Shown piece by piece: positions 1-21,221 of a stretch of DNA of 59,150 nucleotides (position 1 is its first letter; each line of letters begins with the position of its first letter). The notes under the pieces were generated by a model. That model had not been told where the DNA came from and made no database searches. It saw only the letters and a list, made by a program, of their open reading frames with translations. The DNA lies in contig JBNJGI010000003.1 of the NCBI GenBank assembly GCA_051819685.1, positions 1-59,150 of the forward strand, read 5' to 3'. This DNA comes from Nanobdellota archaeon (lineage in GTDB: Archaea > Nanobdellota > Nanobdellia > Woesearchaeales > DATGWN01). The position numbers were made by a program, and so were the translations under genes.

Positions 1-608
1 GTGAAATTAATATATTTTTTTGAAAGTTTTTTTAGATTTTCATTATTAAATCCATAAAAATTTATATTATTTTCTTTTGCAGCATTATAATCATTAATAG
101 AATCTCCAATTAATATTGTTTCATTTTTTTTATAATTTTTATTTATTATAATATTTTTAATTAATATATCTTTAGAGGTTGGTGAACCATTTATTGATAA
201 GAAATATTTAGATATATTTAAATTTTCACATAAATAATTCAATTCATTATGTTCAGAACCTGAAACTATATGTAAATTATATTTTTTATGATTGTTTTTA
301 ATAAAATTTATAGTTTCTTTAATTAAATATTTTTGTTTAATTAATTCTAACCTCATTATTTTAGAAAATTCATTTGCTAATTCATTAATTTTTTCTTTTG
401 TTATATCTTTTTTTAATATATTTTCATAAAAATATTTAATTTTAACAAATCTAGATAATCCTCCATTAGTTCTATGAAATTTAATTAATTTATCAATTTT
501 CTCTTTTGGATATTGCTTAAAAATTTCTTTAAAACCAATATCTCTTACATTCATAGAATCTAATATTACTCCATCAAAATCAAATAAAATATTTTTAATA
601 ATATTCAA
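1..608 (-). CDS. HAD-superfamily phosphatase; C-terminus runs off the window start
   Basis: Not in the ORF track. Probable TTG start at 606-608, 2 bp after the stop of the upstream gene. Translation LNIIKNILFDFDGVILDS... has HAD motif I (DxDG). HIVSGS (motif II) and GDSINDYNAA (motif IV) follow. Confidence 0.6.
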   Translation of the reverse strand, partial: MNIIKNILFDFDGVILDSMNVRDIGFKEIFKQYPKEKIDKLIKFHRTNGGLSRFVKIKYFYENILKKDITKEKINELANEFSKIMRLELIKQKYLIKETINFIKNNHKKYNLHIVSGSEHNELNYLCENLNISKYFLSINGSPTSKDILIKNIIINKNYKKNETILIGDSINDYNAAKENNINFYGFNNENLKKLSKKYINF

Positions 609-610
609 TT

Positions 611-2188
611 TTAAACCTCTATATTTTGATATATACTAGGAGTTACAAATTCAATGTTTAAATTTAATTTTTTTAATATTTTAGTCATTCCTAAATTCAT
701 TTTATTTATAGCTTCTTTACTTGTTACTAAATTCATATTCTTATCAAAATAATCAGTTTCAACTTGGTGATATCCATCTAATCCTGCTAAATATACTTTG
801 TTTACATTGGTTTTTTTTAATAAATTTAAAAGCATTAAACTTGAATTATCTTTAACATAATCTATATTATTTAATAAATCAATATAGTTTACTTTTAAAA
901 AATCTTTCTTTATATTTGAAGTAATTATTATTTTTTCTTTTTCTAAATTATTTTTTTCTAAAATATTTTTAAATCTTTTTTCATTGCTTACAAAAACATA
1001 ATCATAATTAAAATCTTTTGGTATAAAGTTTACACAAATTGTTTTTATATTACTTCTATTATTTATTTCTTTAATCTTTTCTTTATATTTATTTAAACTA
1101 GAACCTGGAGCAATAATCATAACTTCTTTTCCTTTAAATTTACTTTTTAATTTTTCAATTATTTCAATATCATTAATATTATGTTTTTGATATTCTAAAT
1201 ATAATTTTTCAGCATAATCTTTATTAAAATTACCTTTTTTACTTTGAGGTAATTTTTCTAAAATTGTACTAATTGATTTTACTGTTAAAGTATTTTTATC
1301 AGCTAAAAAAGTTGCATAATTAGGATGACAATTATTTGCTGCAGATAAATAATGTGGTAAAGAATATCCCCAATATTTATTAAAGTATATGTTGTTTAAA
1401 ACTTCATCAATAATTTCTAAGAGTGGATAAATTTTATATTTTGTTTTATGAAATTCATTTAAATAACCTAAAAATAATTCAGTATTTAAATTTCCTGCAC
1501 CTCTTCCCATTCCAAAAACAGATGAATCTATAACTATTGTTCTATTTGTATTAAGTTCAACTAATGCTTGTGCATTAGAATAAGATAATTGCATATTGTT
1601 GTGCGAATGATAACCTGTATTAATATTTTTATTTAAATTATTATCAATTAAATAAAACATCCTTAATAGATCTTTTTGTTTCATCATACCAAAACTATCA
1701 ACCATATAAAAAGCATAAGGTTTTATTTCATTGAATTCTTTAATTACATGTAATAATTCCATATCTGAATAATTTATTGTAACCATTATTTGAATAAAAA
1801 GCATATATCCTTTTTTTGATAATTTTCTACAATATTCAATTGCTTCATTTACATCTTTTTTATGAAATGCAACTCTAATACCATCAACAGAAGTTCCATC
1901 ATATTCTGGAATATCTTCAATATCATATGTTCCAAAATTAATCATACAAACATATTTTTTATTGTTTTTATTTTTTGGAATAAAATCTTTGAATCTATCT
2001 ATGCTATCAAAAATTGATTTATCGGATTTATATGCTTTTTTTTGATTTAAAAAACCACATTCAATTATGTCAATATCTGATTCAGTTAATTTGTTAATAA
2101 CTCTTTTAATATTGTTTTTACCAAATTCCCAATTATTAACATAACCGCCATCCCTTAAAGTACAATCCAAAACTTCAATTTTTTTCAT
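611..2188 (-). CDS. Two-domain protein: N-terminal HMGL-like (pyruvate carboxyltransferase / DRE-TIM aldolase) domain fused to a C-terminal DUF115 / MptE-like (Maf-type) domain
   Basis: The N-terminus VLDCTLRDGGY is typical of HMGL-like TIM-barrel aldolases. The C-terminal ~200 aa (IIAPGSSL...ICVNF...YLAGLDGY) fit the DUF115 pattern. 4-bp overlap with the neighbouring gene. Confidence 0.5.
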   Translation of the reverse strand: MKKIEVLDCTLRDGGYVNNWEFGKNNIKRVINKLTESDIDIIECGFLNQKKAYKSDKSIFDSIDRFKDFIPKNKNNKKYVCMINFGTYDIEDIPEYDGTSVDGIRVAFHKKDVNEAIEYCRKLSKKGYMLFIQIMVTINYSDMELLHVIKEFNEIKPYAFYMVDSFGMMKQKDLLRMFYLIDNNLNKNINTGYHSHNNMQLSYSNAQALVELNTNRTIVIDSSVFGMGRGAGNLNTELFLGYLNEFHKTKYKIYPLLEIIDEVLNNIYFNKYWGYSLPHYLSAANNCHPNYATFLADKNTLTVKSISTILEKLPQSKKGNFNKDYAEKLYLEYQKHNINDIEIIEKLKSKFKGKEVMIIAPGSSLNKYKEKIKEINNRSNIKTICVNFIPKDFNYDYVFVSNEKRFKNILEKNNLEKEKIIITSNIKKDFLKVNYIDLLNNIDYVKDNSSLMLLNLLKKTNVNKVYLAGLDGYHQVETDYFDKNMNLVTSKEAINKMNLGMTKILKKLNLNIEFVTPSIYQNIEV

Positions 2189-2949
2189 TTTAAATCTTTT
2201 TCATTTATTATTTTTTTACAAGCATCAGCAAAAATTCCTACATCAACAGAATATGCTATATATTTTACACCTGCATCTTTCCACAGTTTAAGTCCTTTTT
2301 CACAATCAACAAAAGTTCCAACTAGTTTATTAGATTTTTTACATTTATCAACTATTGTTTTCATTGCAGTAATGACTTTTTCATCAAAAATATTTCCTGG
2401 AACGCCTAATGATTGAGATAAATCATAAGGCCCGATAAAAACAACATCGATGTTTCTTAGTTGTATTATTTCATCTAAGTTAGTTAATGCTTCTTGTCCT
2501 TCTAATTGTATTATTAGTATCGTTTCATTTGATTTTTTAAAATAATCATTTTTATCCATTAGTGAATGATTTGCTGCTCTTACAAACCTGCAAACTCCTC
2601 GTTCTCCTTCAGGATAAAATTTAGACAAGTTTATTAATTTTTTAATGTCTTCTCTAGTTGAAATTTGAGGCGCTTGTATTCCTTTAGCACCTATATCTAA
2701 AGATTTGCCTATGTTTGTTTCATTTATTTCAGGTATTCTTATTATGGGGAATGTGTTTGAAATTTCTGCAGCTCTAATTAAATTTTGCATATTTTGATAA
2801 TTAGTAACTCCATGTTCTGCATCCAGTATGACAAAATCAAATCCTGCTAATCCTGCTATTTCTACAAAAGATGGATCTGAGGTTTTCATAAACATACCTA
2901 ATACGAAATCATCTTCTATTTTTTTTTTAAATTTAAAAGTATTATTCAT
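2185..2949 (-). CDS. HpcH/HpaI-family class II pyruvate aldolase
   Basis: 254 aa. DFVILDAEHG and a TIM-barrel pattern (IQLEG...VDVVFIGPYDLS) are typical of HpcH/HpaI aldolases. Confidence 0.65.
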   Translation of the reverse strand: MNNTFKFKKKIEDDFVLGMFMKTSDPSFVEIAGLAGFDFVILDAEHGVTNYQNMQNLIRAAEISNTFPIIRIPEINETNIGKSLDIGAKGIQAPQISTREDIKKLINLSKFYPEGERGVCRFVRAANHSLMDKNDYFKKSNETILIIQLEGQEALTNLDEIIQLRNIDVVFIGPYDLSQSLGVPGNIFDEKVITAMKTIVDKCKKSNKLVGTFVDCEKGLKLWKDAGVKYIAYSVDVGIFADACKKIINEKDLK

Positions 2950-3679
2950 TTAAACCATCTTTTTTTATTTTTTCAATTACTTTATCTAAATCCTTCTTTG
3001 TATCAACAGATAGGGTGTCGCAAGATAAATCAACAAAATTTATATTTTTTTTATTTTCAATAAATCTTAATAAATCAATATTTTCTATTATTTCTATAGG
3101 ACCTCGTTCTGTTTTAACATAAAAATCTAATGCTTGTTTATTAAACGCGTAAACTCCGACGTGTTTTTTATAACTGTAGTTTATACTTCCTCCTGGGTAG
3201 GGTATTGGTGCTCTAGATATATATATTCCATCTCCTTTTGAATTCATTACAACTTTTAGATTTGAGGGGTCTATTGCTTCAACAGGATCCTTTATTGTTG
3301 TTATTATGTTTGAAACAATTTGTTCATCTTTATTTGGTTTTGTTGGGATAATTTCTTTTATAGTTTCAGGCGAAATTAATGGTTCATCGCCATTGATAGA
3401 TATATAGTAATCGGCGTTTATTTTAGTTGAAACTTCCTGGATTCTGTCAGTTGGTGTTAAATGTTTATCAGAAGTCATTATCACGTTCATGTTGTATTCT
3501 TTGCAAACTTTTTCGATTCTTTCATCATCTGTTGCAACATAAATCTCATCTAATTCTTTTACTTTCTTTGCTTGATGATAAACCCACCAAATCATTGGTT
3601 TCCCACATATATCTGCTAATGGTTTTCCTTCAAATCTAGTTGATTTATATCTTGCAGGGATTACAGCGACAATTTTCAT
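2942..3679 (-). CDS. kdsB: 3-deoxy-manno-octulosonate (ulosonic acid) cytidylyltransferase, KdsB-like
   Basis: The N-terminus [28 protein letters not shown] is the classic KdsB/CMP-ulosonate synthetase signature. 245 aa. Confidence 0.8.
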   Translation of the reverse strand: MKIVAVIPARYKSTRFEGKPLADICGKPMIWWVYHQAKKVKELDEIYVATDDERIEKVCKEYNMNVIMTSDKHLTPTDRIQEVSTKINADYYISINGDEPLISPETIKEIIPTKPNKDEQIVSNIITTIKDPVEAIDPSNLKVVMNSKGDGIYISRAPIPYPGGSINYSYKKHVGVYAFNKQALDFYVKTERGPIEIIENIDLLRFIENKKNINFVDLSCDTLSVDTKKDLDKVIEKIKKDGLNE

Positions 3680-3704
3680 TTTATTTATTTAAAGTTTTTA
3701 TCTT

Positions 3705-4001
3705 TTATATGTCTTTTGATAATTTATTTAAAAAATCAATAATTATTTCTGCATTTGTTTTATTTTTTGATTTTTTATCGATTATATATTTATTAATAAA
3801 TTTATCATAAGCTTTATTATCTACTTTTAATTTAAAATTTAAATTTTTTTCAAGATTAATTAATGGTGCATTTAATTCTTTTACTTTTTTTGCTTGATTA
3901 TAAACCCACCAAATCATGGGCCTTCCACATATATCTGCCAAAGGTTTACCTGGAAATCTTGATGATTTATATCTCGCTGGAATTACTCCTATTATTTTCA
4001 T
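3705..4001 (-). pseudogene. Chimeric remnant: kdsB-like N-terminus (aa 1-44) fused to a copy of the C-terminus of the 377-aa upstream gene
   Basis: aa 1-44 are ~80% identical to the start of ORF 2942..3679. aa 45-98 parallel the last ~55 aa of ORF 3998..5131. Too short to be a cytidylyltransferase. Confidence 0.6.
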
Positions 4002-5131
4002 TTTTTATCACCTTCTAAACTTTTAAAAAACTTTAATAAAATATATCTATTAGTTTTATCTTTCATTTTTTTAAAAACAATAAATTTATTTGTGAATTTT
4101 GCATATGCTTTTTTATCTATTTTTAAATTAAAATTAGTTTTCTCATCTATATTGACTAAAGGCGCGTTAAGCATGTTAGAGAATTCTATTGTCCTTTCAG
4201 CCCAATCTCTTGCGTCTGTTTTTAACATTTCATTCGAAATTACAAAGACTAACGGTTTTTTATATAATATTGCAGTCATATTTGATGTAGTTTCATGACT
4301 TATGCAAAATTCTGAATATTTAATCAAATTAGTTGTTTTATATTTAAATATTTTTCTTTTTCCAAACTCATTTGTATAATTGGCTTTAGGATGTGCAGCG
4401 ATAACAACTTCTAAATCATATTTCTTTTCTAAATAATCAAAAAAACTTTTTAAAGCTAAATAATATTTTTTAGGTTTTACACTCTTCCCAATCTGTAAAA
4501 TATCTGATAAAAAAGGAATATTGGAATCTAAAAAAACCGCATATTTTTTTTTAACTAATTTTTTATGATTTTTTAAAGATTCTAAATAATCTAAATATTT
4601 AATATTATGTATGTGTATATATTTTTTTGCAAGACCAAAATCTAAACCAGGTTCGTTAATTTTATAATTTAAAAGTAAATTTCTTTTAAAAGTCTTATAA
4701 TACACTTGTCTCAAAGGATAAAACAAAAATAATTGAATTGCGATTTTTTTGATTAGTGAAGTTTTTTTGCTTTTTAATTTTGATTTTAATTGCATATATG
4801 TGGCAATTGTATGCTTAGAAAAATGAACTAAAATTGCCTCATACTTTTTTAATAAGTTAAAAAATTCTCTTTCTTTAATATGTGGAGAAAAAAATAGAAA
4901 AATTAATTTTTCATTTTGAGATCTCAAAAGATGAATCAAATCTTTTTTTGAATTTACATTCTTGACATTTTTTAGCTTAGTTTCATAACAAAAATAGGTA
5001 CAGTCAGGATTATATATTTTTGTCAAATCCCATAATTCTAATTTAAAATGTTCTTTTAAAAAATGAATATCCAAATCTTTTTCTTCTTTTTTAGTAAAAG
5101 GCTCGCTCATAGTTACAAAAATAAGTTTCAT
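3998..5131 (-). CDS. Hypothetical surface-carbohydrate biosynthesis protein; candidate ulosonic-acid transferase
   Basis: 377 aa with no motif I can name firmly (VIAAHPK...). The call rests on its position between a GT4 gene and the kdsB-like gene, with translational coupling. Confidence 0.3.
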
Positions 5132-6324
5132 TTTAACACCTTTTCATATTCTTTCACAATTTTTCTAGCAATTTTATCCCAATGATATTTTTTGCTATAA
5201 TTTATTATTTTCTTTTTATCCCATTTCTTATTTAAAGCTTTGTTTATTAATTCACTTAATTCTTTATAATTATTTGGATTTTTTAATAAAAAACCATAAT
5301 CATCTTTTGTAATTATACTTTCACTCCCCCCATTTACTGTTGAAACAACAGGAGTTCCACATGCTAAAGCTTCAATATTAACTACACCAAAACTTTCTGA
5401 GTAAGAAGGAAAAACAAACAAATCTGCAACATTCATCCATAAAGGTATTTCATCGTGAGGTTTTGGCCCTAAAACTTTGACATATTCTTCCAATTTCAAT
5501 TCTTTGATTTTATTAATAATTTTTTGTTTATCAGGACCATTACCTATTAAATATAAAATAAAATCTTGTCTAATTTTAACTAGTTCTTTTATTGCTTTAA
5601 TTAAGTTAATGTGATTTTTATGAGATATTTTATATCCTGCAACATTTAATAATATTTTTTTATCTGAAGGAATTTTTAATTTTTCTTTTGAAATATTATT
5701 AATTCTCTTAAATTTAGAACTATTAAAACCATTAGGTATAGTTATGGTATTTAAATTGTGTTTTTTTAAAAGTGGAACATCGATTTCATTAACTCTTATT
5801 AACAAATAATTTTCTTTCCAAGATTTTATTAATTTTGGATTATTTGACTTAAATTCTTCTAAAAACCAGTTTCTATTTTCATGTATTGTTACAATACTTT
5901 TCTTACCATAATCCTCTTTTAATTTAGCTCCAACATATCCACAAGGCCATGTGAAATGAGCATGAATTAAGTCAAAATTTAAATTGTTTTGTTCTATACA
6001 TTTTTTAGTTGCTTTGTAAGCAAAATCTCCGTTTCTTTTTCTAAAGTAATTTATAGGTAGTGTGAAAAAATTTGGATAATATACTTCTACATTATCGTAA
6101 GAATAATCCTTCAAAAGATAACTTGATTTAAATTTATTTTTAAAATAATCAATTTTAGATAAAATTTTAGGAAAATATGGTACTGCCGAAATAACTATAA
6201 TTTTATTAAAGTATTTTTTTAGTTCATCAACTTGTGATTTTACGAAAACAGAAGAGGTGATTTTTCCATCCTTTGTTGGATAACCACTACTTATAATTAA
6301 CAAATTTTTATCTTTTAAACTCAT
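5128..6324 (-). CDS. Glycosyltransferase family 4 (GT-B fold)
   Basis: The C-terminal motif PSYSESFGVVNIEALACGTPVVSTVNGGSESII is typical of GT4. Confidence 0.8.
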   Translation of the reverse strand: MSLKDKNLLIISSGYPTKDGKITSSVFVKSQVDELKKYFNKIIVISAVPYFPKILSKIDYFKNKFKSSYLLKDYSYDNVEVYYPNFFTLPINYFRKRNGDFAYKATKKCIEQNNLNFDLIHAHFTWPCGYVGAKLKEDYGKKSIVTIHENRNWFLEEFKSNNPKLIKSWKENYLLIRVNEIDVPLLKKHNLNTITIPNGFNSSKFKRINNISKEKLKIPSDKKILLNVAGYKISHKNHINLIKAIKELVKIRQDFILYLIGNGPDKQKIINKIKELKLEEYVKVLGPKPHDEIPLWMNVADLFVFPSYSESFGVVNIEALACGTPVVSTVNGGSESIITKDDYGFLLKNPNNYKELSELINKALNKKWDKKKIINYSKKYHWDKIARKIVKEYEKVLK

Positions 6325-7381
6325 TTTTTATTATCTCTATTATTTTTTTACAAGCATTTCCTTCTCCAAAAAAGCTTTTAAATTCTCCTTTGGAATTGAA
6401 AGAACTTGTTGCTTTAATAATCTTTTCTTTATTTGCTCCTACCAATATTGCTTCTTTGTTCTCCACTGCTTCAATAAATTCAATATTATCTCTAAGTACT
6501 ATACAATTTTTTTTCAAAAAGTATGATTCTCTTAATACTCCACCAGAATCTGTTAATATTTTATTTGCATTTTTTATTAGTTTTAAAGTATCTAAATAAT
6601 TAGTTGGTTCAATAAATAATATGTTTTTATTTTGATATTTGTCCCAAATATTATATTTTTTTAATCTATTTTTAGTCCTTGGATGAAGTGGAATAACAAC
6701 TAACCTATCTAATTCTAAAAAAGCATCAAAAATATTCTCCAATTTATTTTTATTATCTGTATTAACTGCTCTATGAACTGTAGCAAAATAGTAATTATTT
6801 TTCTCTATGTTCAATTTATTGAATATTGCTTCATCTCCTTTTTTTACAAAATAAATAGCTGCATCATATGTAATATCTCCTACAAAATAGACATTTTCTC
6901 TAATATTTTCTTTTTTTAATTCATCTACTGCCGTCAATGTAGGACAAAATAAATATCTTGAAACATGATCAGTACAAATTCTATTCAATTCTTCTGGCAT
7001 ACTTTTATCATGACTTCTAAAACCTGCTTCAATATGACTAACAGGAATATCTAATTTAGAACCTACTAAAGAAGCTGCTAAAGTGGAATTAGTATCTCCA
7101 TAAACAATTATCATATCTGGATTTTCTTTAATAATTAATTTTTCAAGTTCGACCATCATTTTTCCTGTTTGCTCTCCATGATTTCCACCATTTATATTTA
7201 AATTGTATTTTGGTTTGGGGATTTTAAGTTGTTTAAAGAAAATATCCGACATATTTTTGTCATAATGTTGCCCAGTATGTACTATGATTTCGTTAATATC
7301 TTTATGCTCTTCCAAATTTTTGCTAAAAATTGCTGCTTTGATAAATTGAGGTCTTGCTCCAACTATAGTCAATATTTTCAT
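6308..7381 (-). CDS. wecB: UDP-N-acetylglucosamine 2-epimerase (non-hydrolysing type)
   Basis: MKILTIVGARPQFIKAA..., HTGQHYD and DSGG motifs. 357 aa. Confidence 0.85.
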   Translation of the reverse strand: MKILTIVGARPQFIKAAIFSKNLEEHKDINEIIVHTGQHYDKNMSDIFFKQLKIPKPKYNLNINGGNHGEQTGKMMVELEKLIIKENPDMIIVYGDTNSTLAASLVGSKLDIPVSHIEAGFRSHDKSMPEELNRICTDHVSRYLFCPTLTAVDELKKENIRENVYFVGDITYDAAIYFVKKGDEAIFNKLNIEKNNYYFATVHRAVNTDNKNKLENIFDAFLELDRLVVIPLHPRTKNRLKKYNIWDKYQNKNILFIEPTNYLDTLKLIKNANKILTDSGGVLRESYFLKKNCIVLRDNIEFIEAVENKEAILVGANKEKIIKATSSFNSKGEFKSFFGEGNACKKIIEIIKNEFKR

Positions 7382-7443
7382 TTTAATATCCTAACTTTTT
7401 AATGAATATTTTAATTCTTTATTTAAATAATTTTTATTTTGTT

Positions 7444-8268
7444 TTACATAAAAACCTTAGCTTTTCCTTTTGTTCCTATAACATATCCAAACTTATTTAT
7501 TGCAAATCTTCTAAATTTTGTTTTAAAACCGTATTTTTTTAAAAATTTAGATATAACTATTTCATCTTTTTCGCCATTTATATATCCTATATCCTCTTTT
7601 TTATTTCTTATTCTACCAGCAACTACAGTTATTGACATTGATTTGTTTTTTGAAAGTAAATTTGTCATACCTTTTAGTGAGTTATATTCTGCTCCATTAA
7701 TAGTTAAATTAACATAAGAAATATTTTGTGGATTTATATTATGTTCTTTTAATATATTATCTAAATTATCTGAAATTACTTTTATTTTTTTAGTATTTTT
7801 AAAGAATTTTAAATTTTTACCCCAATTTTTAGATCCAGGTATATTTACTAATCTATTAACTTTTTTTGCATTTGTGACTTCAAAAATCATTTCTTTTTTT
7901 ACATCAAATAAAGCTTTTTTGACTATTATAAATTTTGCTTTAAAATGTTTTGAATATTTTTTTAAGATTTTTATATTATTTGGTTCTGGTTCAATCACTA
8001 TTACTGTACCTTTTTTACCTACAACTCTTGCAATATCTAATGCTTGTGAATTAAACTCATCTAAACGACAACCAGCTTGTACTGCAATATCTCCAGGTTT
8101 TAAAACTTTATATATACCTAAGGCTTTATCTAAATTTCCATAAAAATAATAATAAAATTTTTTACTTGTAAATATTTTTATAAAAATTAAAATTATTTTT
8201 TTTATTATTGGAAATAATGTTAATGTTTTTAATATAATATGTCTTATTTTATGTTTTATTTTTATCAT
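7444..8268 (-). CDS. FkbM-family methyltransferase with an N-terminal hydrophobic segment
   Basis: VIVIEPEPNN and LTINGAEYNSLKG match FkbM motifs. Confidence 0.55.
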   Translation of the reverse strand: MIKIKHKIRHIILKTLTLFPIIKKIILIFIKIFTSKKFYYYFYGNLDKALGIYKVLKPGDIAVQAGCRLDEFNSQALDIARVVGKKGTVIVIEPEPNNIKILKKYSKHFKAKFIIVKKALFDVKKEMIFEVTNAKKVNRLVNIPGSKNWGKNLKFFKNTKKIKVISDNLDNILKEHNINPQNISYVNLTINGAEYNSLKGMTNLLSKNKSMSITVVAGRIRNKKEDIGYINGEKDEIVISKFLKKYGFKTKFRRFAINKFGYVIGTKGKAKVFM

Positions 8269-8327
8269 TTTAACACCTACTTAATTTTAAATAAATTTTG
8301 TAAAAATAAATATTAATATTATTCATT

Positions 8328-9284
8328 TTAATATCCGAACTTTTTAATATAAATTTTTAATTCTTTATTTAAAAAATCTTTGTCTTTTTTATTCATTTTT
8401 TTCCATTTTCCAATGTTTCCCTTGGACAAATCAAAATTTAACATTTTATCTTCAATATTTATATCTAAAAAATCACAAACTTCATTTAATGAGGACTCTG
8501 TTTTATTTATTAGATCTTCCATTTTTAATATTTTAACATAATTTTTATTTAATTTTTTGTATTCAAAATCCCATTTTTCCATAATTGATTTATACCAAGA
8601 AACTGCCTCTTCAATACTATTTGGAGCCCATTTTTGTTTTAAAAAAGAAAAAACAACATCCCTAGGATCTCTTATCATATGAATGATTTTACTATTTGGT
8701 ATCAAAGATAAAAGTTCACTAGAATACAATATATTCCAAGTATTATCTTCAATAAATATTTTTTTATTGTTTTTTTTTAAAGTATCATTAATAATATCAT
8801 TAAAGAAAGAATTATAGTATTTTTTTAAATCTTTATTATATTCAATAAAATAAATTTCATTATTTTTTATTAATTTTTGACTTCCCGGCCAAGAACCCTT
8901 AAAGGAGAATGATTTTAAGTTATTTATTAATTTATTAACATGAAAATCATAGTTTTCAAACCATTTACTTAATTCCCATCCATAATATGGATAAGGAGTA
9001 AAACCAAATTTTTTAAAAAATAAAGAGACATAGTATTTGAAAGTATTTCTTTTTGATAAACTTTTCATAAAAGATTCAAAATTTTTAATTTTATAGTCAG
9101 TATAATAGGGAGACCAATTATTTTTTAAACCTAAATATAAATCAATAACACCTCTTGGGTCAATAGTAAATCTATGCTCAAAGGGTAAAGAAAAGGCATT
9201 TGAATGGGAAGAAAGTATTTCTTTTAAAATATTTGTTCCACAACGACCAGTTCCTCCAATAAGACATGTTTTTACTTTACCCAT
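8328..9284 (-). CDS. Sulfotransferase (PAPS-dependent family)
   Basis: The 5'-PSB-like P-loop LIGGTGRCGTNIL lies at the N-terminus. The 3'-PB-like motif is IHMIRDPRDVVFS. Confidence 0.65.
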   Translation of the reverse strand: MGKVKTCLIGGTGRCGTNILKEILSSHSNAFSLPFEHRFTIDPRGVIDLYLGLKNNWSPYYTDYKIKNFESFMKSLSKRNTFKYYVSLFFKKFGFTPYPYYGWELSKWFENYDFHVNKLINNLKSFSFKGSWPGSQKLIKNNEIYFIEYNKDLKKYYNSFFNDIINDTLKKNNKKIFIEDNTWNILYSSELLSLIPNSKIIHMIRDPRDVVFSFLKQKWAPNSIEEAVSWYKSIMEKWDFEYKKLNKNYVKILKMEDLINKTESSLNEVCDFLDINIEDKMLNFDLSKGNIGKWKKMNKKDKDFLNKELKIYIKKFGY

Positions 9285-9898
9285 CTAATTACCTCAAAAG
9301 CTTCGGCAAATTTTGAAGAGATTTGAGCACCTCTAAAAAAGCACATACCTTTTATAACATCAGGTTTTGTATAATCCCTGTTATTTTGAGTTTCATATTT
9401 TGATACAGATTTAACTTTTTTCAACACATTTTGTTCAGATAATTTTATATAATAATTTGTATTAAATGAAAAATTATTCCACATAAACTCATAACCTAAA
9501 ATGGATTTCGTTTTAAAAGCTCTTAAACCCTCTTCATATATAGTTTTATGATCTTGGTGAATATCTTTTGAAGAAGGCATAAAAATTATATCAGGATTGA
9601 TTTTTTCTTTTAGATTTATTAATTTATCAAGAATTTTTTGCCTATATTCAGGAAAATTGCGTACAGGAAAATTAAAAATAAATCTATTTTCTTCTTTAAT
9701 ACCTAAAACATTTGTTGCTTTTATACATTCTTTTTTTAAAATATCATCAGGATAACCTTCTGGTATAGACTTTTCACAAATAGAAAACGCAACATAAAAA
9801 ACTTCATTTCCTTCTTCAATATATCTAGAGATAGTTCCACCACAAGCTAACTCCCCATCATCTGTGTGAGGAGAGAGTATAAGTATTTTTTCATTCAT
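9272..9898 (-). CDS. PIG-L / LmbE-family N-acetylsugar deacetylase
   Basis: ILILSPHTDDGELACGGTI matches the (A/S)PHPDD...GGT signature. HQDH follows later. Confidence 0.75.
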   Translation of the reverse strand: MNEKILILSPHTDDGELACGGTISRYIEEGNEVFYVAFSICEKSIPEGYPDDILKKECIKATNVLGIKEENRFIFNFPVRNFPEYRQKILDKLINLKEKINPDIIFMPSSKDIHQDHKTIYEEGLRAFKTKSILGYEFMWNNFSFNTNYYIKLSEQNVLKKVKSVSKYETQNNRDYTKPDVIKGMCFFRGAQISSKFAEAFEVIRWVK

Positions 9899-11016
9899 TT
9901 TAATAAATCCTCATATAATTTGATTAATTTCTTTTCTTCATTTTCCCAATTATAATTTTTTAAAGCCTTAAATGAATTTGAAGAGTACAGATTATAGTTA
10001 TAATTGATCTTTTTAAAAGCTTTTTGAATTTCTTCAGAATTAATTTTATCTAAAGCAAATCCTAAATTATTTTCATCTATATATTTTTTCATAAAAGGAT
10101 TAAAACTAGTTCCTATTATCGGTAATTTCGCCATAGAGTATTCCATTAGCTTTGTTGATATCCCATCTCTTCTTTTAGGAGTGTTATGGAATAATACTAA
10201 TCCAACCTTTGCTTTTGAAATTTCATTTAGCACCTTTGAATATGGTAAATTTTCAATTAAATCTATATTTAACTTATTTTTTTTTATTATAGACTTTAAT
10301 TTTCTCCTTTCTTCAATTAAACCTGATAATATTAAAAGAATACTATAAGGAGTTTTTTTAGAAAGTTCTAAAATATCATAAATACCTCTTGATTTATTAG
10401 TAGTACCACAATATACAAAATCATATTTTTTGTTTTTAACTATTTTTTTTCTTATTCGAGGGAAATTAGATATACAATGAATATTTTTTTTATATCTATT
10501 AAATTTTTTTTTGTGGTGTTCTACTACTACCAGTATAGTATCGGTAAAAAAAACAAAAAATTTTTCATAAATATGTGCTACTTTAGACAAAATGAATCTT
10601 TTAAAATTACTCATATAATCTGTTTCATTAATCATTTTAATGAAGTCTTCATGCATATCATATATTACTTTTCCTCTTTTTATTAATTTTAAATAAGGAG
10701 TTAATATTAAATCCTCGAAGTCATGTATATGATATACTCTGCTTTTAACTTTTCTTAAAATTTTAAATAATTTAATAATAGAACCTAAGATTTGTTGTTG
10801 ATTACCTTTTATTCCATAAATCACATAATTTTTTCCTTTTATTATTTCTTCTTTATCATTATTTATTGCCAATATTAGAACATTTAAATTTAATTTATTA
10901 ATTAAACTCATAGTTTCTTTATGAAAAATTCTATGATCCTTTAAAGGGTGTCTGGAAGAGACCATACAAACATCATATTTTTTATTTAAAAATTCTTTTC
11001 CCTTCATTGATTTCAC
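9895..11016 (-). CDS. Glycosyltransferase (GT-B, GT4-like)
   Basis: 373 aa. The C-terminal region ...DGISTKLMEYSMAKLPIIGT resembles the GT4 E-x7-E region. Embedded in the operon. Confidence 0.6.
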   Translation of the reverse strand: MKSMKGKEFLNKKYDVCMVSSRHPLKDHRIFHKETMSLINKLNLNVLILAINNDKEEIIKGKNYVIYGIKGNQQQILGSIIKLFKILRKVKSRVYHIHDFEDLILTPYLKLIKRGKVIYDMHEDFIKMINETDYMSNFKRFILSKVAHIYEKFFVFFTDTILVVVEHHKKKFNRYKKNIHCISNFPRIRKKIVKNKKYDFVYCGTTNKSRGIYDILELSKKTPYSILLILSGLIEERRKLKSIIKKNKLNIDLIENLPYSKVLNEISKAKVGLVLFHNTPKRRDGISTKLMEYSMAKLPIIGTSFNPFMKKYIDENNLGFALDKINSEEIQKAFKKINYNYNLYSSNSFKALKNYNWENEEKKLIKLYEDLLK

Positions 11017-11981
11017 CGATAATTATTTTTATTTTTTAATATTAATTGTATCAGCATACCTAATCCAAACATGATGTAAATTTCTAGGAATACAAATATG
11101 TTTATAAAAAAAAGAGATATTTTTTTTAAGCTAAAAAAAAGTATAAGAATAAAATAAAGAGCTAAAGGAATTATCATCAACATATCTATTAGTAACAAAA
11201 GGGGTAATAAAATTACATATATTATAAATAACAAAGGAATTAAATGAATTTTTTTTTTTATTCCATGTTTTTGAATCATTTTCATTCTTGCAACCCCATA
11301 ATTATACATCTGTTTTAAAAATGACTTTGGAGATGATCTAGGATAATATGTCGACTTAATTTTTGGATCAAATAGTAATTTTTTCCCACTAGAAATTATT
11401 CTTAGATTAAATTCCCCGTCTTGACCTATTGTAAAATCAGGATTAAATTTTCCAATTTCTTTAATTATATATTTTTTATATAAACCAAATACAACTGTTT
11501 GTGTAAATTGTTTTTTGTTTGAATATCTAAATGATGAGGTACCTCCACCTGCAATAGTACTTGTTACAAAACTTACAGATTTGGTGAATTTGTTTGCATT
11601 AGTTAAATTATCATTTAACCTTCCACCGACACCAACAACATCTTCTGGTTGTTTTATCAAAGTTTCATAATTGTTTCTTAAAAAATCTTTAGGAACTTTA
11701 GAATGTGCCCCTAAAATCATAAAATAATCACCCATACTTTTTTCTAATCCTATATTTAATGCATAAGGGGTTTTTCTTTTAGGATTATCTAATAATTTTA
11801 TTTTATTATGTTTTTTCATATAATTTGAAACTATTGTTTTAGTTTTATCTTCTGAATTTCCATCAACAACAAGTATTTCAAATTCTTCTTTTATATCTTG
11901 ATTTAGTAGATTTTTTAATAACCCTTCAATAAATTTTTCTTCATTAAAAGTAGGAATTATTACACTAACTAAAGGTTTCAT
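11013..11981 (-). CDS. Glycosyltransferase family 2 with C-terminal transmembrane segments
   Basis: VSVIIPTFNEEKFI and a DGNSED (DxD-like) motif. Hydrophobic C-terminal tail. Confidence 0.8.
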   Translation of the reverse strand: MKPLVSVIIPTFNEEKFIEGLLKNLLNQDIKEEFEILVVDGNSEDKTKTIVSNYMKKHNKIKLLDNPKRKTPYALNIGLEKSMGDYFMILGAHSKVPKDFLRNNYETLIKQPEDVVGVGGRLNDNLTNANKFTKSVSFVTSTIAGGGTSSFRYSNKKQFTQTVVFGLYKKYIIKEIGKFNPDFTIGQDGEFNLRIISSGKKLLFDPKIKSTYYPRSSPKSFLKQMYNYGVARMKMIQKHGIKKKIHLIPLLFIIYVILLPLLLLIDMLMIIPLALYFILILFFSLKKISLFFINIFVFLEIYIMFGLGMLIQLILKNKNNYR

Positions 11982-13072
11982 TCAAAACCCTCCAAAACTT
12001 GTTTGTAATCTACATCTGGATAGATTGGAATGCTAAAAACTGTTCTACTTGTTTTTTCTGAAATTGGTAAATCCCCTTCTTGATATCCTAGGTATTTGAA
12101 GCATTCTTGTAAATGAAGAGGTATTGGATAATAAATCCCACAAGAAATATTTTTGTTTTTTAATTTTTGAATTATCTCGTCTCTTTCTTTTTCGTTTTTT
12201 GCTAATAGGGCATATTGATGATATATGTGTTTTATATTCTCAGTTTCAAATGGTGTTTTAAATTTATCTTTAAGTTTGTTAGTGTATTCTTTTGCTATTT
12301 TAATTCTTTTATTATTCCATTCATCAAGATACTTTAGCTTAACCCGTAACACTGCTGCTTGAATTGCATCTAATCTTGAATTAAAACCCACAAATTCATG
12401 ATGATATTTTTTCTTTGAACCATGAACTCTTGCCTTTTTTAAAAAATCAGCTAAATTATCATCATTAGTGACAACTAATCCACCATCACCCATACCTCCG
12501 AGATTTTTTGTTGGAAAAAAACTAAAGCAACCAAAATCACCAATAGTTCCAACTTTTTTTCCTTGGTATTCTGAACCTATTGCTTGACATGCATCTTCAA
12601 TAATTTTCAAATTATGTTTTTTTGCTATCTTTAAAATTGCAGTCATATCACAAGATTGACCGAAAATATGAACAGGCATTATTGCTTTTGTATTTTTAGT
12701 TATTTTTTCTTCTATTAAATCAGGATTTATATTGTATGTATCTTTATCTATATCAACAAAAACTGGTTTTGCACCTAATCTTGCAATTGAACCTGCTGTT
12801 GCAAAGAATGTAAAAGGTGTTGTTATTACTTCATCTCCTGGTTCTACTCCTGATGCCATAAGAGAGAGTAATAGAGCATCACTTCCTGAAGCACAACTTA
12901 TTGCATGTTTTACAGAAAGATACTTTGCAATCTGTTCTTCAAATTCTTTTACTTCATTTCCTAAGATAAAACTGCTTGAATCTATAACAGAATTTATATT
13001 ATTCATAATTTCTTCTTTTATTGGTGTTATTTGTTTTTTTAGATCTAAAAAAGGTACTGCCATATTCATCAC
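11978..13072 (-). CDS. DegT/DnrJ/EryC1-family PLP aminotransferase (WbpE-like, UDP-3-oxo-sugar aminotransferase)
   Basis: FILGNEVKEFE...SCASGSDALLL...TTPFTFFAT...FFPTKNLG pattern of the DegT family. Confidence 0.85.
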   Translation of the reverse strand: MMNMAVPFLDLKKQITPIKEEIMNNINSVIDSSSFILGNEVKEFEEQIAKYLSVKHAISCASGSDALLLSLMASGVEPGDEVITTPFTFFATAGSIARLGAKPVFVDIDKDTYNINPDLIEEKITKNTKAIMPVHIFGQSCDMTAILKIAKKHNLKIIEDACQAIGSEYQGKKVGTIGDFGCFSFFPTKNLGGMGDGGLVVTNDDNLADFLKKARVHGSKKKYHHEFVGFNSRLDAIQAAVLRVKLKYLDEWNNKRIKIAKEYTNKLKDKFKTPFETENIKHIYHQYALLAKNEKERDEIIQKLKNKNISCGIYYPIPLHLQECFKYLGYQEGDLPISEKTSRTVFSIPIYPDVDYKQVLEGFE

Positions 13073-18858: not shown

Positions 18859-19773
18859 TTATTTATACATTTCCCTGCATTCTTTTATAATTTCATTTTT
18901 GTCTATTTTGTATTTTTTAAGTAATTCTTCTGGAGTGCCGGATTCTCCAAATGTGTCTTGAATTCCTATTATTTTTATAGGTATTTTTGTTTCAGATAAA
19001 AGCTCTGCTACTGCACTTCCTAATCCTCCTGCTTTTTGGTGTTCTTCAACTGTTATTATTTTTCCTGTTTTTTTTGCTGATTTTAAGATTGTTTTTTTAT
19101 CTAATGGCTTTATTGTATGGCAATTTATTATTTCAGTGGAGATTCCTTCTTTTTTTAATTCTTCAGCAGCTTTTAGGGCTTCATGTAAACAGATCCCACA
19201 TGATATTATTGTTAGATTCTTACCAGTTTTTAGTTTGTATGCTTTTCCCAATTGTATTTTACTTTTATTTGATATTATCGGAAATTTATGTCTGCTTGTT
19301 CTTATGTAAACAGGGCCTTTTTCTTTAGCTATTTGTTTTGTTAATTCTTCTGCTTCCTGAGAATCTGAAGGTACAACCACTTTTAGATTTGGTAAAACTC
19401 TTGTTATTGCTATGTCTTCAAGAGCCTGATGTGTTGCTCCATCTTTACCTACTGTCAATCCAGCATGAGATCCATGAATTTTGACATTTAAGTTTGAATA
19501 ACATATGCTTACTCTTAATTGATCCCAGTTTCTTCCAGGGGAAAATACTGCAAAAGAATTTACAAAAGGTGTTTTTCCTAATGAAGCTATTCCTGCTGCT
19601 ACACACATCATATTTTGTTCAGAGATTCCACATTGAATAAATCTTCGAGGATATTTTTCTGCAAAGTATTGGGTTCTTGTCGATGATTTAAGGTCTGCTG
19701 TTAAAGCATATATTTTATTATTTTTTCCTGCTTCTAAAAGCCCTTTTCCGTATCCATCTCTTATGCTTTCCAT
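18859..19773 (-). CDS. Transketolase, C-terminal (pyrimidine-binding) subunit
   Basis: 304 aa. ...RFIQCGISEQNMM...NLKVVVPSD... is typical of split archaeal transketolase. Confidence 0.9.
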   Translation of the reverse strand: MESIRDGYGKGLLEAGKNNKIYALTADLKSSTRTQYFAEKYPRRFIQCGISEQNMMCVAAGIASLGKTPFVNSFAVFSPGRNWDQLRVSICYSNLNVKIHGSHAGLTVGKDGATHQALEDIAITRVLPNLKVVVPSDSQEAEELTKQIAKEKGPVYIRTSRHKFPIISNKSKIQLGKAYKLKTGKNLTIISCGICLHEALKAAEELKKEGISTEIINCHTIKPLDKKTILKSAKKTGKIITVEEHQKAGGLGSAVAELLSETKIPIKIIGIQDTFGESGTPEELLKKYKIDKNEIIKECREMYK

Positions 19774-21221
19774 TTTAATTCTTGTATGGCTTTTTCAGCT
19801 TGTTCTTTGTTTGGTGCTTTTCCATGCCAATGATAATCATTTTCCATGAATGATACTCCTTTTCCTGGTATTGTGTTTGCAATTATTGCTTTTGGTTTTT
19901 TATGTTGTTTTTTTATTGTTTTTATGAATTCTTTTATGTTGTTTCCATCACATTCAGATACATCTAAGCCAAAGGATTCTAATTTGTTTTTTAAGTTATT
20001 TAATGGCATTATTTGTTTTGTGTTTCCATCTAATTGTATTTTGTTTCTGTCTATTATTATTGTTAAATTTGAAAGATTTTCTTTGTTTGCTAACATGAAT
20101 GCTTCCCAACATTGTCCTTCGTCTAGTTCACCGTCACCACAGATTGCATACACTTTGTTCGGTTTTTGTTCTCTTTTTAATACAATTGCAACTCCGACTG
20201 CCATCGATAGTCCTTCAGCTAAAGGCCCTCCTGAGTTTTCAATTCCTCGTATTATGTTATGAGGGTGTCCTTGTAACAAAGAATCTATTTTCCTTAGTTT
20301 TTGTAGTTCTTTTTTTGGAAAGTATCCTGTTTCTGCCAGTGTTGCGTATAGTATGGGACAAACGTGTCCGTTCGATAAGAATAAATAATCTCTTTCTGTC
20401 CATTTTGGGTTTTCAGGATTGTGTTTTAATATGCGAAAGTAGAGTGTTGTGAGGATGTCAGCTAATCCTAAGGGTCCTGCTGTGTGCCCACTTCCTGCTT
20501 TTTCTAGCATTTTTATAACTTCTATTCTTAATTTTCTAGATTTTTTTTCAAGTTCTTTTTCACTTAATCCTGGATTGATAGATTTTCTCATAATTTCAAG
20601 GTTTTTTACAGGATTGCTATATATGAATGAGCCTGAATTGATTGCATCGCAACCTTTTTTGGCTAGTCTTTTCGCAATTGATGGTTTGACTCCTCCATCT
20701 GCTTGTATGTGTATTCCAGAATATTGATTTTTTATGTTTTTAATTTTTTTTAGAGTATTTTCTTCAAATTCCTGTCTTTCTTTTCCAGGGTGTACTCCCA
20801 TTAGAAGAATTTCTGTTTTTTCTTGATATATTGTTTCTAATACTTTATTGCTTATTTTGGTTTCAGGGTTAAATGCTATTGTAGGTATTAATTTGTTTTG
20901 TTTTATTGTTTTTATTGCTTCTTCTAAGTTTTTTATTGTTTCGTAATGTATTATTATTTTTTTGAATCCTTTTTGTTTTAGTTTTTTTATTTCCTTTAAG
21001 GGTTCTTTTATCATTAAGTGTGCTTCGTAGTTATGATTTTTATCAAGGTGAGGTATATTTTTGACTTCGATTGATTTTTTAGAAACAAATTTTCCATCCA
21101 TTATATCAATTTGAATGTTTTTTGTGATTTTTTTGAGTATTCCTAATCTTTTTGCGAATGCTTGTGAGTCTTTTTTTATTTGATCTTGTGTTACAAAGAC
21201 TGTTGGTATTACTTTTTTCAT
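19761..21221 (-). CDS. Fusion protein: ribulose-phosphate 3-epimerase-like domain (aa ~1-215) plus transketolase N-terminal (TPP-binding) subunit
   Basis: RPE motifs: IDIMDGKFV, AHLM, AFNPET, LLMGVHPGKERQEF, IQADGGV. These are followed by GSGHTAGPLGLADIL...GDGELDEGQCWEA of the transketolase N-terminus. Confidence 0.8.
   Translation of the reverse strand: MKKVIPTVFVTQDQIKKDSQAFAKRLGILKKITKNIQIDIMDGKFVSKKSIEVKNIPHLDKNHNYEAHLMIKEPLKEIKKLKQKGFKKIIIHYETIKNLEEAIKTIKQNKLIPTIAFNPETKISNKVLETIYQEKTEILLMGVHPGKERQEFEENTLKKIKNIKNQYSGIHIQADGGVKPSIAKRLAKKGCDAINSGSFIYSNPVKNLEIMRKSINPGLSEKELEKKSRKLRIEVIKMLEKAGSGHTAGPLGLADILTTLYFRILKHNPENPKWTERDYLFLSNGHVCPILYATLAETGYFPKKELQKLRKIDSLLQGHPHNIIRGIENSGGPLAEGLSMAVGVAIVLKREQKPNKVYAICGDGELDEGQCWEAFMLANKENLSNLTIIIDRNKIQLDGNTKQIMPLNNLKNKLESFGLDVSECDGNNIKEFIKTIKKQHKKPKAIIANTIPGKGVSFMENDYHWHGKAPNKEQAEKAIQELKWKA

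Follow-up and report, generated by a model that had tools for sequence, protein, structure and literature searches.

The stretch analysed here, referred to as the window, comprises the first 59 kb (59,150 nucleotides, nt) of contig C3 (JBNJGI010000003.1) in the genome of a Nanobdellota archaeon (assembly GCA_051819685.1; 0.93 Mb in 44 contigs, 87% complete). At the very start of the contig, which is also the start of the window, a cassette of four genes lies on the minus strand, and the sugar acid that these genes may make is the subject of this study. In the order of reading they encode a cytidylyltransferase of the KdsB/KpsU family (positions 3679 to 2942, 245 amino acids, aa), an aldolase of the HpcH/HpaI type (2949 to 2185, 254 aa), a 525-aa protein labelled FUS in which an aldolase is fused to a domain of the MptE/Maf/sialyltransferase fold (2188 to 611), and a HAD-IA hydrolase (608 to 3) of which 202 aa are present, the 3' end being cut by the contig start. 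There is an overlap of 8 nt between the KdsB-like and HpcH genes and one of 4 nt between HpcH and FUS, and a gap of 2 nt separates FUS from the HAD gene. An earlier interpretation made from the letters of the window alone (the sequence-only reading) had described four coupled genes with these domains; the open reading frames (ORFs) and their coupling were confirmed, and the domain calls were upheld with Pfam and NCBIfam models, except that the DUF115/MptE-like call fell below the Pfam threshold and was upheld by other comparisons. By sequence comparison, the catalytic residues are intact in both aldolases, in the HAD hydrolase and in the cytidylyltransferase.

The N-terminal part of FUS (residues 1-~331, window 1196-2188) consists of a DRE-TIM metal-dependent aldolase domain, which is HMGL-like and related to DmpG, and a helical linker. 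Residues 4-244 matched the HMGL-like family PF00682 (E 1.8e-17), a score of 92 bits was obtained on NF006049, and in the PDB the protein matched 3dxi (E 1.8e-33) and DmpG (1nvm, E 1e-12). An AlphaFold2 (AF2) model of FUS reached a predicted local distance difference test score (pLDDT) of 92.6. In 40 FUS homologues, the residues D8, R12, D13, Y16, E43, H194 and H196 of the aldolase half are invariant. The family is large, with more than 7000 matches in a search of 5.8 billion proteins, and the best 120 matches are 48-81% identical over the full length. Relatives that are 50-62% identical across both domains occur in Bacillus, Clostridia, Yersinia and Campylobacterota. The named homologues (from Bacillus, Yersinia enterocolitica, Clostridium, Desulfosporosinus and Riflebacteria) are labelled only as 'aldolase catalytic domain-containing protein' or '4-hydroxy 2-oxovalerate aldolase', and literature searches found no paper on the fusion family, its cassette or PDB entry 3dxi.

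The C-terminal domain of FUS (residues ~332-525, window 614-1195) spans about 190 aa. PF01973, the DUF115/MptE-like family, matched FUS below its gathering threshold (21 bits vs 34.6) and only over the N-terminal motif of the family (residues 336-381); similarly weak MptE-like matches were found in 7 of 40 members of the FUS family. A profile of the C-terminal domain built from 21 homologues was aligned by hhalign with a profile of standalone MptE-like proteins of 255-305 aa that are encoded in the same bacterial loci as FUS, which gave a probability of 74% (E 2.8e-5) and brought both family motifs into register (GK..IAPGxS with G.RCFIIGTGPSL, LAGLDG with LLGxDC). As Foldseek with the full-length FUS model returned TIM-barrel matches only, the C-terminal domain was modelled alone (AF2, pLDDT 89). 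This model matched Maf (5mu5, Z 11.4) and the MptE/HPPK protein of M. jannaschii (8sd5, Z 11.3), followed by CstI (2p56, Z 9.3), mammalian sialyltransferases (Z ~9) and thiamin pyrophosphokinases (Z ~7). Invariant in this half among the 40 homologues are G362, R405, T423, N425, A468, G469, D471 and G472. As modelled, the domain is a short, divergent member of the fold common to Maf, sialyltransferases and pyrophosphokinases. The sequence-only reading had proposed a DUF115/MptE-like domain with a possible role in sugar transfer; its fold class was borne out by the profile alignment, the weak Pfam matches and the AF2 fold, whereas transfer is only one option for its role, since the fold is common to CMP-sugar transferases and pyrophosphokinases (CMP, cytidine monophosphate).

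The KdsB-like enzyme matched PF02348 (CTP_transf_3, E 4.8e-50), passed the kdsB equivalog TIGR00466 marginally (159.9 bits vs a cut-off of 155.2) and had KpsU as its best PDB match (1gq9, E 2e-49); according to a genome search, its gene is the only complete CTP_transf_3 gene in the genome as assembled. From these matches it is a candidate CMP-(2-keto-3-deoxy acid) synthetase. The residues for cytidine triphosphate (CTP) and Mg, namely R10, R15, K19, D100 and D235, are kept in the archaeal protein and in 29-30 aligned FUS-linked proteins. E. coli KdsB, KpsU (UTI89) and three housekeeping KdsBs were used as references for a wider comparison of residues; KdsB and KpsU are 47% identical, and all five references are identical at N96, Q98, R164, H181, Y185, E210 and Q211. 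The archaeal enzyme keeps H181 and Y185 and carries N96S, Q98N, R164G, E210D and Q211L. In the FUS-linked clade, R164 is replaced by K (G in the archaeon), H181 by Q in 23 of 29 proteins and Q211 by I or L, and within this clade Q98N, N96S and E210D are found in the archaeal enzyme alone. Q98 and Y185 of the E. coli enzyme bind 3-deoxy-D-manno-octulosonate (Kdo) at its C5 hydroxyl (PMC12199768). In a maximum-likelihood tree, a split with support values of 97/95 set the FUS-linked and archaeal enzymes apart from the housekeeping KdsBs and the KdsB of E. coli; when KpsU was added, it fell on the KdsB side of the same split (FastTree, support values not printed). Genomes with a FUS-KdsB fusion also carry a housekeeping KdsB, which scores 243-265 bits on TIGR00466 vs 130-147 for the fused copy, and the cassette enzyme is therefore no replacement for KdsB. 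Kdo, which had been among the sugars first suggested, has become unlikely, because the enzyme falls outside the clade of proven CMP-Kdo synthetases and carries altered reference residues including the Kdo-contacting Q98; judging from these residues and the tree, the sugar is probably not Kdo itself but a related keto-deoxy acid.

The remaining two proteins could be assigned to enzyme classes. HpcH matched PF03328 (HpcH_HpaI, E 1.5e-31) and belongs to a large bacterial subfamily with 55-69% identity; in an alignment with YfaU and GarL it keeps the residues at their conserved EH, R, E and D positions, and it is predicted to be a class II (metal-dependent) pyruvate aldolase. Its equivalog scores are low (HpaI 150 vs a cut-off of 369 bits, GarL 144 vs 407, RhmA 121 vs 441). 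All equivalog scores of the two aldolases lie far below the cut-offs, and neither is an orthologue of enzymes of leucine or aromatic catabolism, an assignment that the sequence-only reading had named as fatal to its proposal. The HAD protein matched PF13419 (HAD_2, E 1.5e-16) and TIGR01549 (HAD-IA, 37 bits vs a cut-off of 23.3), and motif I (DFDGV) is present; homologues measure 205-217 aa. In Campylobacterota, the HAD encoded behind the aldolase-KdsB fusion shares 53-64% identity with it. By similarity it is a HAD-IA (beta-phosphoglucomutase-type) hydrolase and a candidate sugar-acid phosphate phosphatase.

To our knowledge, the textbook routes to CMP-Kdo, sialic, legionaminic and pseudaminic acids and Kdn (2-keto-3-deoxynononic acid) all use a synthase of the KdsA/NeuB type that depends on phosphoenolpyruvate (PEP). 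The island had been described as lacking such a synthase; as the window begins at the contig start, the adjoining DNA on that side cannot be read, and a search of the whole genome, at its 87% completeness, found neither KdsA nor NeuB. Within the same genome, no sugar-phosphate isomerase with a SIS domain was found above the cut-off, nor was a standalone MptE-like gene. DAHP_synth_1 gave a single match, at the edge of contig C20 (C20:3-443, minus strand; locus L008), which was considered as KdsA and rejected, its 147 readable residues fitting models of 3-deoxy-7-phosphoheptulonate (DAHP) synthase (PRK08673) and not KdsA. The C20 gene has an extra N-terminal extension of ~95 aa and runs off the contig end. 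DAHP synthase is the entry enzyme of aromatic amino-acid synthesis and was unexpected in an archaeal genome of ~1 Mb.

Gene neighbourhoods of FUS were sampled at 144 loci, 64 from genomes and 80 from metagenomes, among which the nearest relatives of the window were not recovered. Neighbours were scored within 5 kb of FUS, and the 80 of the 144 loci that extend 3 kb or more to either side formed a well-flanked subset. A CTP_transf_3 gene, either KdsB-like or PseF-like, was found near FUS at 97 of all loci and at 57 of the well-flanked ones, and a HAD gene at 36 of the latter. This neighbourhood survey, which the sequence-only reading had called for, ties FUS to CMP-type cytidylyltransferases and phosphatases in glycan loci. 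Several partner sets recur in the well-flanked subset. A KdsB-like or PseF-like cytidylyltransferase stands together with a HAD-IA hydrolase, with or without NeuB, at 19 of the 80 loci; a cytidylyltransferase together with a standalone MptE-like protein, in some cases also with a KDG-kinase-like gene (KDG, 2-keto-3-deoxygluconate), was likewise found at 19. In 17 loci, HAD-IIA and a YerE-like thiamine enzyme lie beside CDP-glucose 4,6-dehydratase and RfbH, and a CMP transferase is missing.

The coupling is closest in Arcobacteraceae and in Sulfurimonas and its relatives, where FUS and the KdsB-like enzyme form one protein of ~768 aa that is followed by HAD-IA (L035, L036, L042-L045, L048-L050, L053 and L054, e.g. 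L048:9995-12301). The HAD of L048 carries an extra domain of ~250 aa without a Pfam match. In L046, NeuB and a second cytidylyltransferase (NeuA) are encoded alongside the cassette, which argues that the cassette there makes something other than the product of the sialic-acid module. A KDG-kinase-like gene takes the place of HAD at 14 of the 80 well-flanked loci, and the two never co-occur; at L009, L015, L019, L041, L047 and L058 (e.g. L019:11579-12604) a PfkB kinase that is very close to the kinases of KDG and KDGal (2-keto-3-deoxygalactonate; 516 bits, NF041633) follows FUS directly. The loci of Lachnospiraceae (L028, L030, L031, L033, L061, L065, L070 and L071, e.g. L028:3957-11590) encode an RfbF-like protein, CDP-glucose 4,6-dehydratase, RfbH, a 614-aa acetolactate-synthase/YerE-like enzyme, HAD-IIA and then FUS, with no CMP-type transferase. 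They may represent a pathway to a branched 3,6-dideoxy sugar in which the aldolase product serves as 2-oxo-acid donor.

The description of the cassette as built around two aldolases did not generalise. HpcH is present at 5 of the 80 well-flanked loci, and it adjoins FUS in only 7 of the 144, six of them marine or hydrothermal and one from Lachnospiraceae. In the six marine or hydrothermal loci the gene order is FUS, HpcH, an iron-sulfur (FeS) protein, HAD and KdsB. The two-aldolase form is a recurring minority variant, and HpcH is an accessory and not part of the cassette core. In two further cases, a FUS and an HpcH homologue come from contigs of equal length (4590 and 6806), a tentative hint that the two genes may lie together there. 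A close copy of HpcH (48-55% identical) was found in 6 of 300 sampled Clostridia genomes. One of the Clostridia copies lies in a glycan locus (L193:8191-12208) behind a polysialyltransferase-like gene (PF07388, E 2.6e-7), Wzx and a PseF-like cytidylyltransferase, with neither FUS nor NeuB within the stretch read; this order shows that HpcH can pair with a CMP-transferase on its own, and HpcH itself may be the sugar-acid synthase there. Three other Clostridia copies (L195-L197) sit in a catabolic-looking setting. In L195 (8304-15182), the HpcH relative lies beside aldehyde:ferredoxin oxidoreductase, ferredoxin, a pyridine-nucleotide oxidoreductase, FMN reductase and an ABC permease; L196 and L197 are similar in ORF sizes and order, the contents of the ORFs having been read in L195 only.

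Enzymes of the DmpG and HpcH types form or split 4-hydroxy-2-oxo acids, and CTP_transf_3 enzymes activate 2-keto-3-deoxy sugar acids. We favour, with a confidence slightly better than even, the reading that the cassette makes a pyruvate-derived 2-keto-3-deoxy sugar acid related to Kdo, Kdn or KDG, which is CMP-activated for the neighbouring AglB-linked glycan genes; that this sugar may enter the N-glycan is suggested solely by the position of the cassette in the AglB island. In the proposed pathway, the DRE-TIM domain of FUS would add the enolate of pyruvate to an aldose or aldose phosphate, giving a 4-hydroxy-2-oxo acid with or without phosphate. The HAD-IA hydrolase would strip the phosphate and so pull the reversible aldol step forward, and the KdsB-family enzyme would then couple the anomeric hydroxyl of the ring form to CMP, taken from CTP. 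Transfer of the sugar to the glycan might be carried out by the C-terminal domain of FUS, by the product of orf377, the gene directly upstream of the cassette, or by a GT4 (glycosyltransferase family 4) protein. HpcH would be optional, and in the window it may make or re-shape the aldehyde partner, act as a second synthase of different stereochemistry or epimerise by retro-aldol cleavage.

Several points weigh against this reading. For every member of the family, the activity, the product and the glycan are predictions from the genes. FUS has an invariant Tyr where DmpG has its catalytic His, and its chemistry may therefore not be the one of DmpG. As the assembly is 87% complete and the cassette reaches a contig end, KdsA and NeuB are 'not found' rather than 'absent'; moreover, the marginal pass on the kdsB equivalog and the kept H181 and Y185 leave room for Kdo. 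The incomplete assembly, the contig end, the equivalog score and the two kept residues would also suit an ordinary supply of CMP-Kdo, in which a KpsU-type synthetase activates Kdo that is provided by a host or by KdsA and KdsD encoded in the 13% of the genome missing from the assembly, and the aldolases serve another purpose; KpsU is moreover the best solved relative. We nevertheless consider this improbable. The enzyme groups with the FUS-linked clade and carries Q98N, R164G, E210D and Q211L, the members of this clade are tightly coupled and in some bacteria fused to the aldolase, which speaks for a common pathway, cassette-bearing bacteria keep a housekeeping KdsB, and in the genome as assembled neither KdsA nor a SIS isomerase was found.

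CMP activation is in addition not universal for the FUS family, since about one quarter of the FUS loci, those of the Lachnospiraceae type, are without a CMP-type transferase, and the modelled C-terminal domain fits pyrophosphokinases as well as transferases. Both points agree with the idea that FUS supplies a free 4-hydroxy-2-oxo acid, for instance as acyl-anion donor for a thiamine enzyme of branched-sugar synthesis, or tailors a cytidine-nucleotide sugar, its C-terminal domain being a cytidine-nucleotide-binding or kinase module instead of a transferase and FUS itself no ulosonate synthase. FUS does occur with RfbF/G/H, a YerE-like thiamine enzyme and HAD-IIA in Lachnospiraceae, some cytidine-nucleotide sugar pathway is present in every FUS context, and among the fold matches of the C-terminal domain, MptE and thiamin pyrophosphokinases stand beside Maf and CstII. 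However, the immediate partner of FUS in the window and in most loci is a CTP_transf_3 enzyme, the known substrates of which are free 2-keto-3-deoxy acids, and genes for CDP-hexoses or thiamine enzymes are lacking from the first 21 kb of the window; we regard this idea as unlikely, if less so than a supply of CMP-Kdo. The replacement of HAD by a KDG-kinase-like gene is not explained by a simple scheme of phosphatase pull. KDG-kinase-like genes in some FUS loci would also fit salvage or catabolism, in which the aldolases cleave scavenged keto-deoxy acids, as NanA does with sialic acid, while the cytidylyltransferase activates the same sugar, an arrangement that would suit a host-dependent archaeon with a small genome. 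Class II pyruvate aldolases are reversible, and in some Clostridia close relatives of HpcH lie beside aldehyde:ferredoxin oxidoreductase and transporter genes (L195-L197). Such salvage appears to us the least probable of the explanations, as the setting of FUS is biosynthetic, its loci containing Wzx flippases, glycosyltransferases and nucleotide-sugar genes, no transporter adjoins the cassette in the window, and a fusion of aldolase and activating enzyme makes little sense for breakdown.

Synthesis of a CMP-activated keto-deoxy sugar acid from pyruvate thus remains the reading that we prefer. In a far-reaching form, it would represent a third, PEP-independent route to CMP-keto-deoxy acids that runs through a metal-dependent pyruvate aldolase and leads to a sugar distinct from Kdo and from the known nonulosonic acids. 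Thousands of bacteria would share this route, the archaeon would have obtained it by gene transfer and used it for its AglB-dependent glycan, and the Maf-fold domain of the synthase itself would be the transferase. This extended form is offered tentatively, and we hold it to be possible rather than probable.

Directly upstream of the cassette, two further ORFs lie on the minus strand. A chimeric ORF of 98 aa (3705-4001) matches CTP_transf_3 in Pfam over model positions 1-40 only. Its start (first ~45 residues) duplicates the 5' end of kdsB, DNA positions 3869-4004 being 84% identical to 3547-3682, and, in a comparison of the translations by eye, its last ~50 residues run parallel to the end of orf377. 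The ORF has the look of a scar left by duplication and deletion between orf377 and kdsB and is probably non-functional. The second ORF, orf377 (3998-5131), overlaps the chimeric ORF by 4 nt and encodes a conserved protein of unassigned family. It has 36 homologues, all unnamed, with invariant D202, H247-P248 and R259. No Pfam match was obtained for orf377 and its 29 aligned homologues, and no PDB entry came below E 0.1 in a profile search. An identity as one of the known CMP-sugar transferases found no support: hhalign against NeuS, NeuE/DUF6716, KpsS, KpsC and the polysialyltransferase-like neighbour of HpcH gave probabilities of at most 3% throughout. The sole hint of a transferase is one Atlas neighbour cluster, one third of the members of which carry PF07388. 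In locus L093, a homologue with 27% identity is encoded at a distance of 0.6 kb from FUS and KdsB, and by position only orf377 is a candidate transferase.

Further upstream on the same strand follow genes for GT4, WecB, an FkbM methyltransferase, a sulfotransferase and a PIG-L deacetylase, and the island also holds two further glycosyltransferases, WbpE/D/B/A-like genes and a 942-aa STT3/AglB. These genes form a typical archaeal glycosylation island, at the end of which the cassette lies. The GC content is 18-27% in the first 12 kb, the outer part of the glycan island, vs 29-33% across most of the remaining window, and the low value in window 1-12000 is consistent with a foreign or fast-evolving island. 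Elsewhere in the window (19761-21221, minus strand), a single ORF of 486 aa combines Ribul_P_3_epim (E 2e-31) with Transketolase_N (E 1.2e-48) and is followed by the gene for the C-terminal subunit of transketolase.

FUS is rare among relatives of the archaeon. Among 400 genomes sampled from its phylum (0.6-1.9 Mb), three have a distant FUS relative of ~590 aa that is 29-32% identical, and FUS is present in none of the four sampled genomes of its own family. The nearest full-length relatives outside the genome are one metagenome protein with 81% identity and then proteins with 55-62%, and all of the nearest relatives with an organism name are bacterial. Among the loci compared, the KdsB-like protein and HpcH are closest to versions from Clostridia (up to 58% and 52% identity), and the HAD protein is closest to Campylobacterota (64%); the closest HpcH homologues overall share 64-67% identity. 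Because FUS is nearly absent from the phylum, its nearest relatives are bacterial and the GC content is low, the archaeal cassette was, by these sequence comparisons, most likely acquired from bacteria, possibly from an unsampled lineage that has all four genes.

Although the cassette itself includes no PEP-dependent synthase, it is widespread among bacteria, gut Clostridia and Campylobacterota included. Should it indeed make a new acidic surface sugar, the known sugars of glycans would gain a building block, many annotations as 'aldolase catalytic domain-containing protein' in capsule and O-antigen loci would be explained, and a new target and a marker for the typing of surface glycans would become available. 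The archaeal copy indicates that modules of this kind pass from one domain of life to another and can be fitted into an island of AglB glycosylation. New in this study are the archaeal host and the AglB context, the two-aldolase variant and its frequency, the evidence from clade and residues against Kdo, and the alternative partner sets of FUS (HAD, KDG-kinase-like gene, thiamine enzyme).

When the cassette is compared with known systems, DmpG, BphI and HsaF (PDB 1nvm, 4jn6 and 4lrs) share with FUS the DRE-TIM barrel, the Arg-Asp of the 'TLRDG' motif and the His-x-His metal site. FUS differs in its score on TIGR03217 (81 bits vs a cut-off of 286), in the replacement of the catalytic His21 by Tyr16, in an extra MptE-fold domain after the communication domain and in a biosynthetic gene context, and no DmpF dehydrogenase partner was seen adjoining its gene. 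PDB entry 3dxi (BVU_2661 of Bacteroides vulgatus) is a true member of the FUS family, with a match over residues 4-313 and a shared DCTLRDGGY motif; it is a structural-genomics entry that covers the aldolase half only, and the only member of the family with a solved structure. With Maf, the GT42 enzymes CstI and CstII and archaeal MptE (HPPK), the C-terminal domain of FUS has in common the fold (Z 9-11) and two hallmark motifs, of which GxxS lies close to the first strand and the other is G-x-D-G, but it lacks the flanking domains of Maf, is only ~190 aa long and falls below the Pfam threshold.

The Kdo pathway of Gram-negative bacteria (KdsD, KdsA, KdsC and KdsB/KpsU) likewise involves a keto-deoxy acid, a HAD phosphatase and activation with CMP through the same CTP/Mg residues. 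It differs in that its PEP-dependent KdsA and its arabinose-5-phosphate isomerase were not found for the cassette, in that the phosphatase of the cassette is of type HAD-IA and not of the KdsC type HAD-IIIA, and in that the cytidylyltransferase of the cassette belongs to a separate clade with changed reference positions including Q98. The modules for nonulosonic acids (NeuB/PseI/LegI, NeuA/PseF/LegF and a sialyltransferase or Maf) resemble the cassette in uniting a synthase, a CMP-synthetase and a protein of the Maf/sialyltransferase fold in surface-glycan loci, and many bacterial FUS loci also contain PseB/PseC-like genes and standalone MptE-like proteins. The condensing enzyme of the cassette, however, is a metal-dependent pyruvate aldolase and not the PEP-dependent NeuB, and as NeuB and NeuA stand beside the cassette in some loci, the two systems are not redundant.

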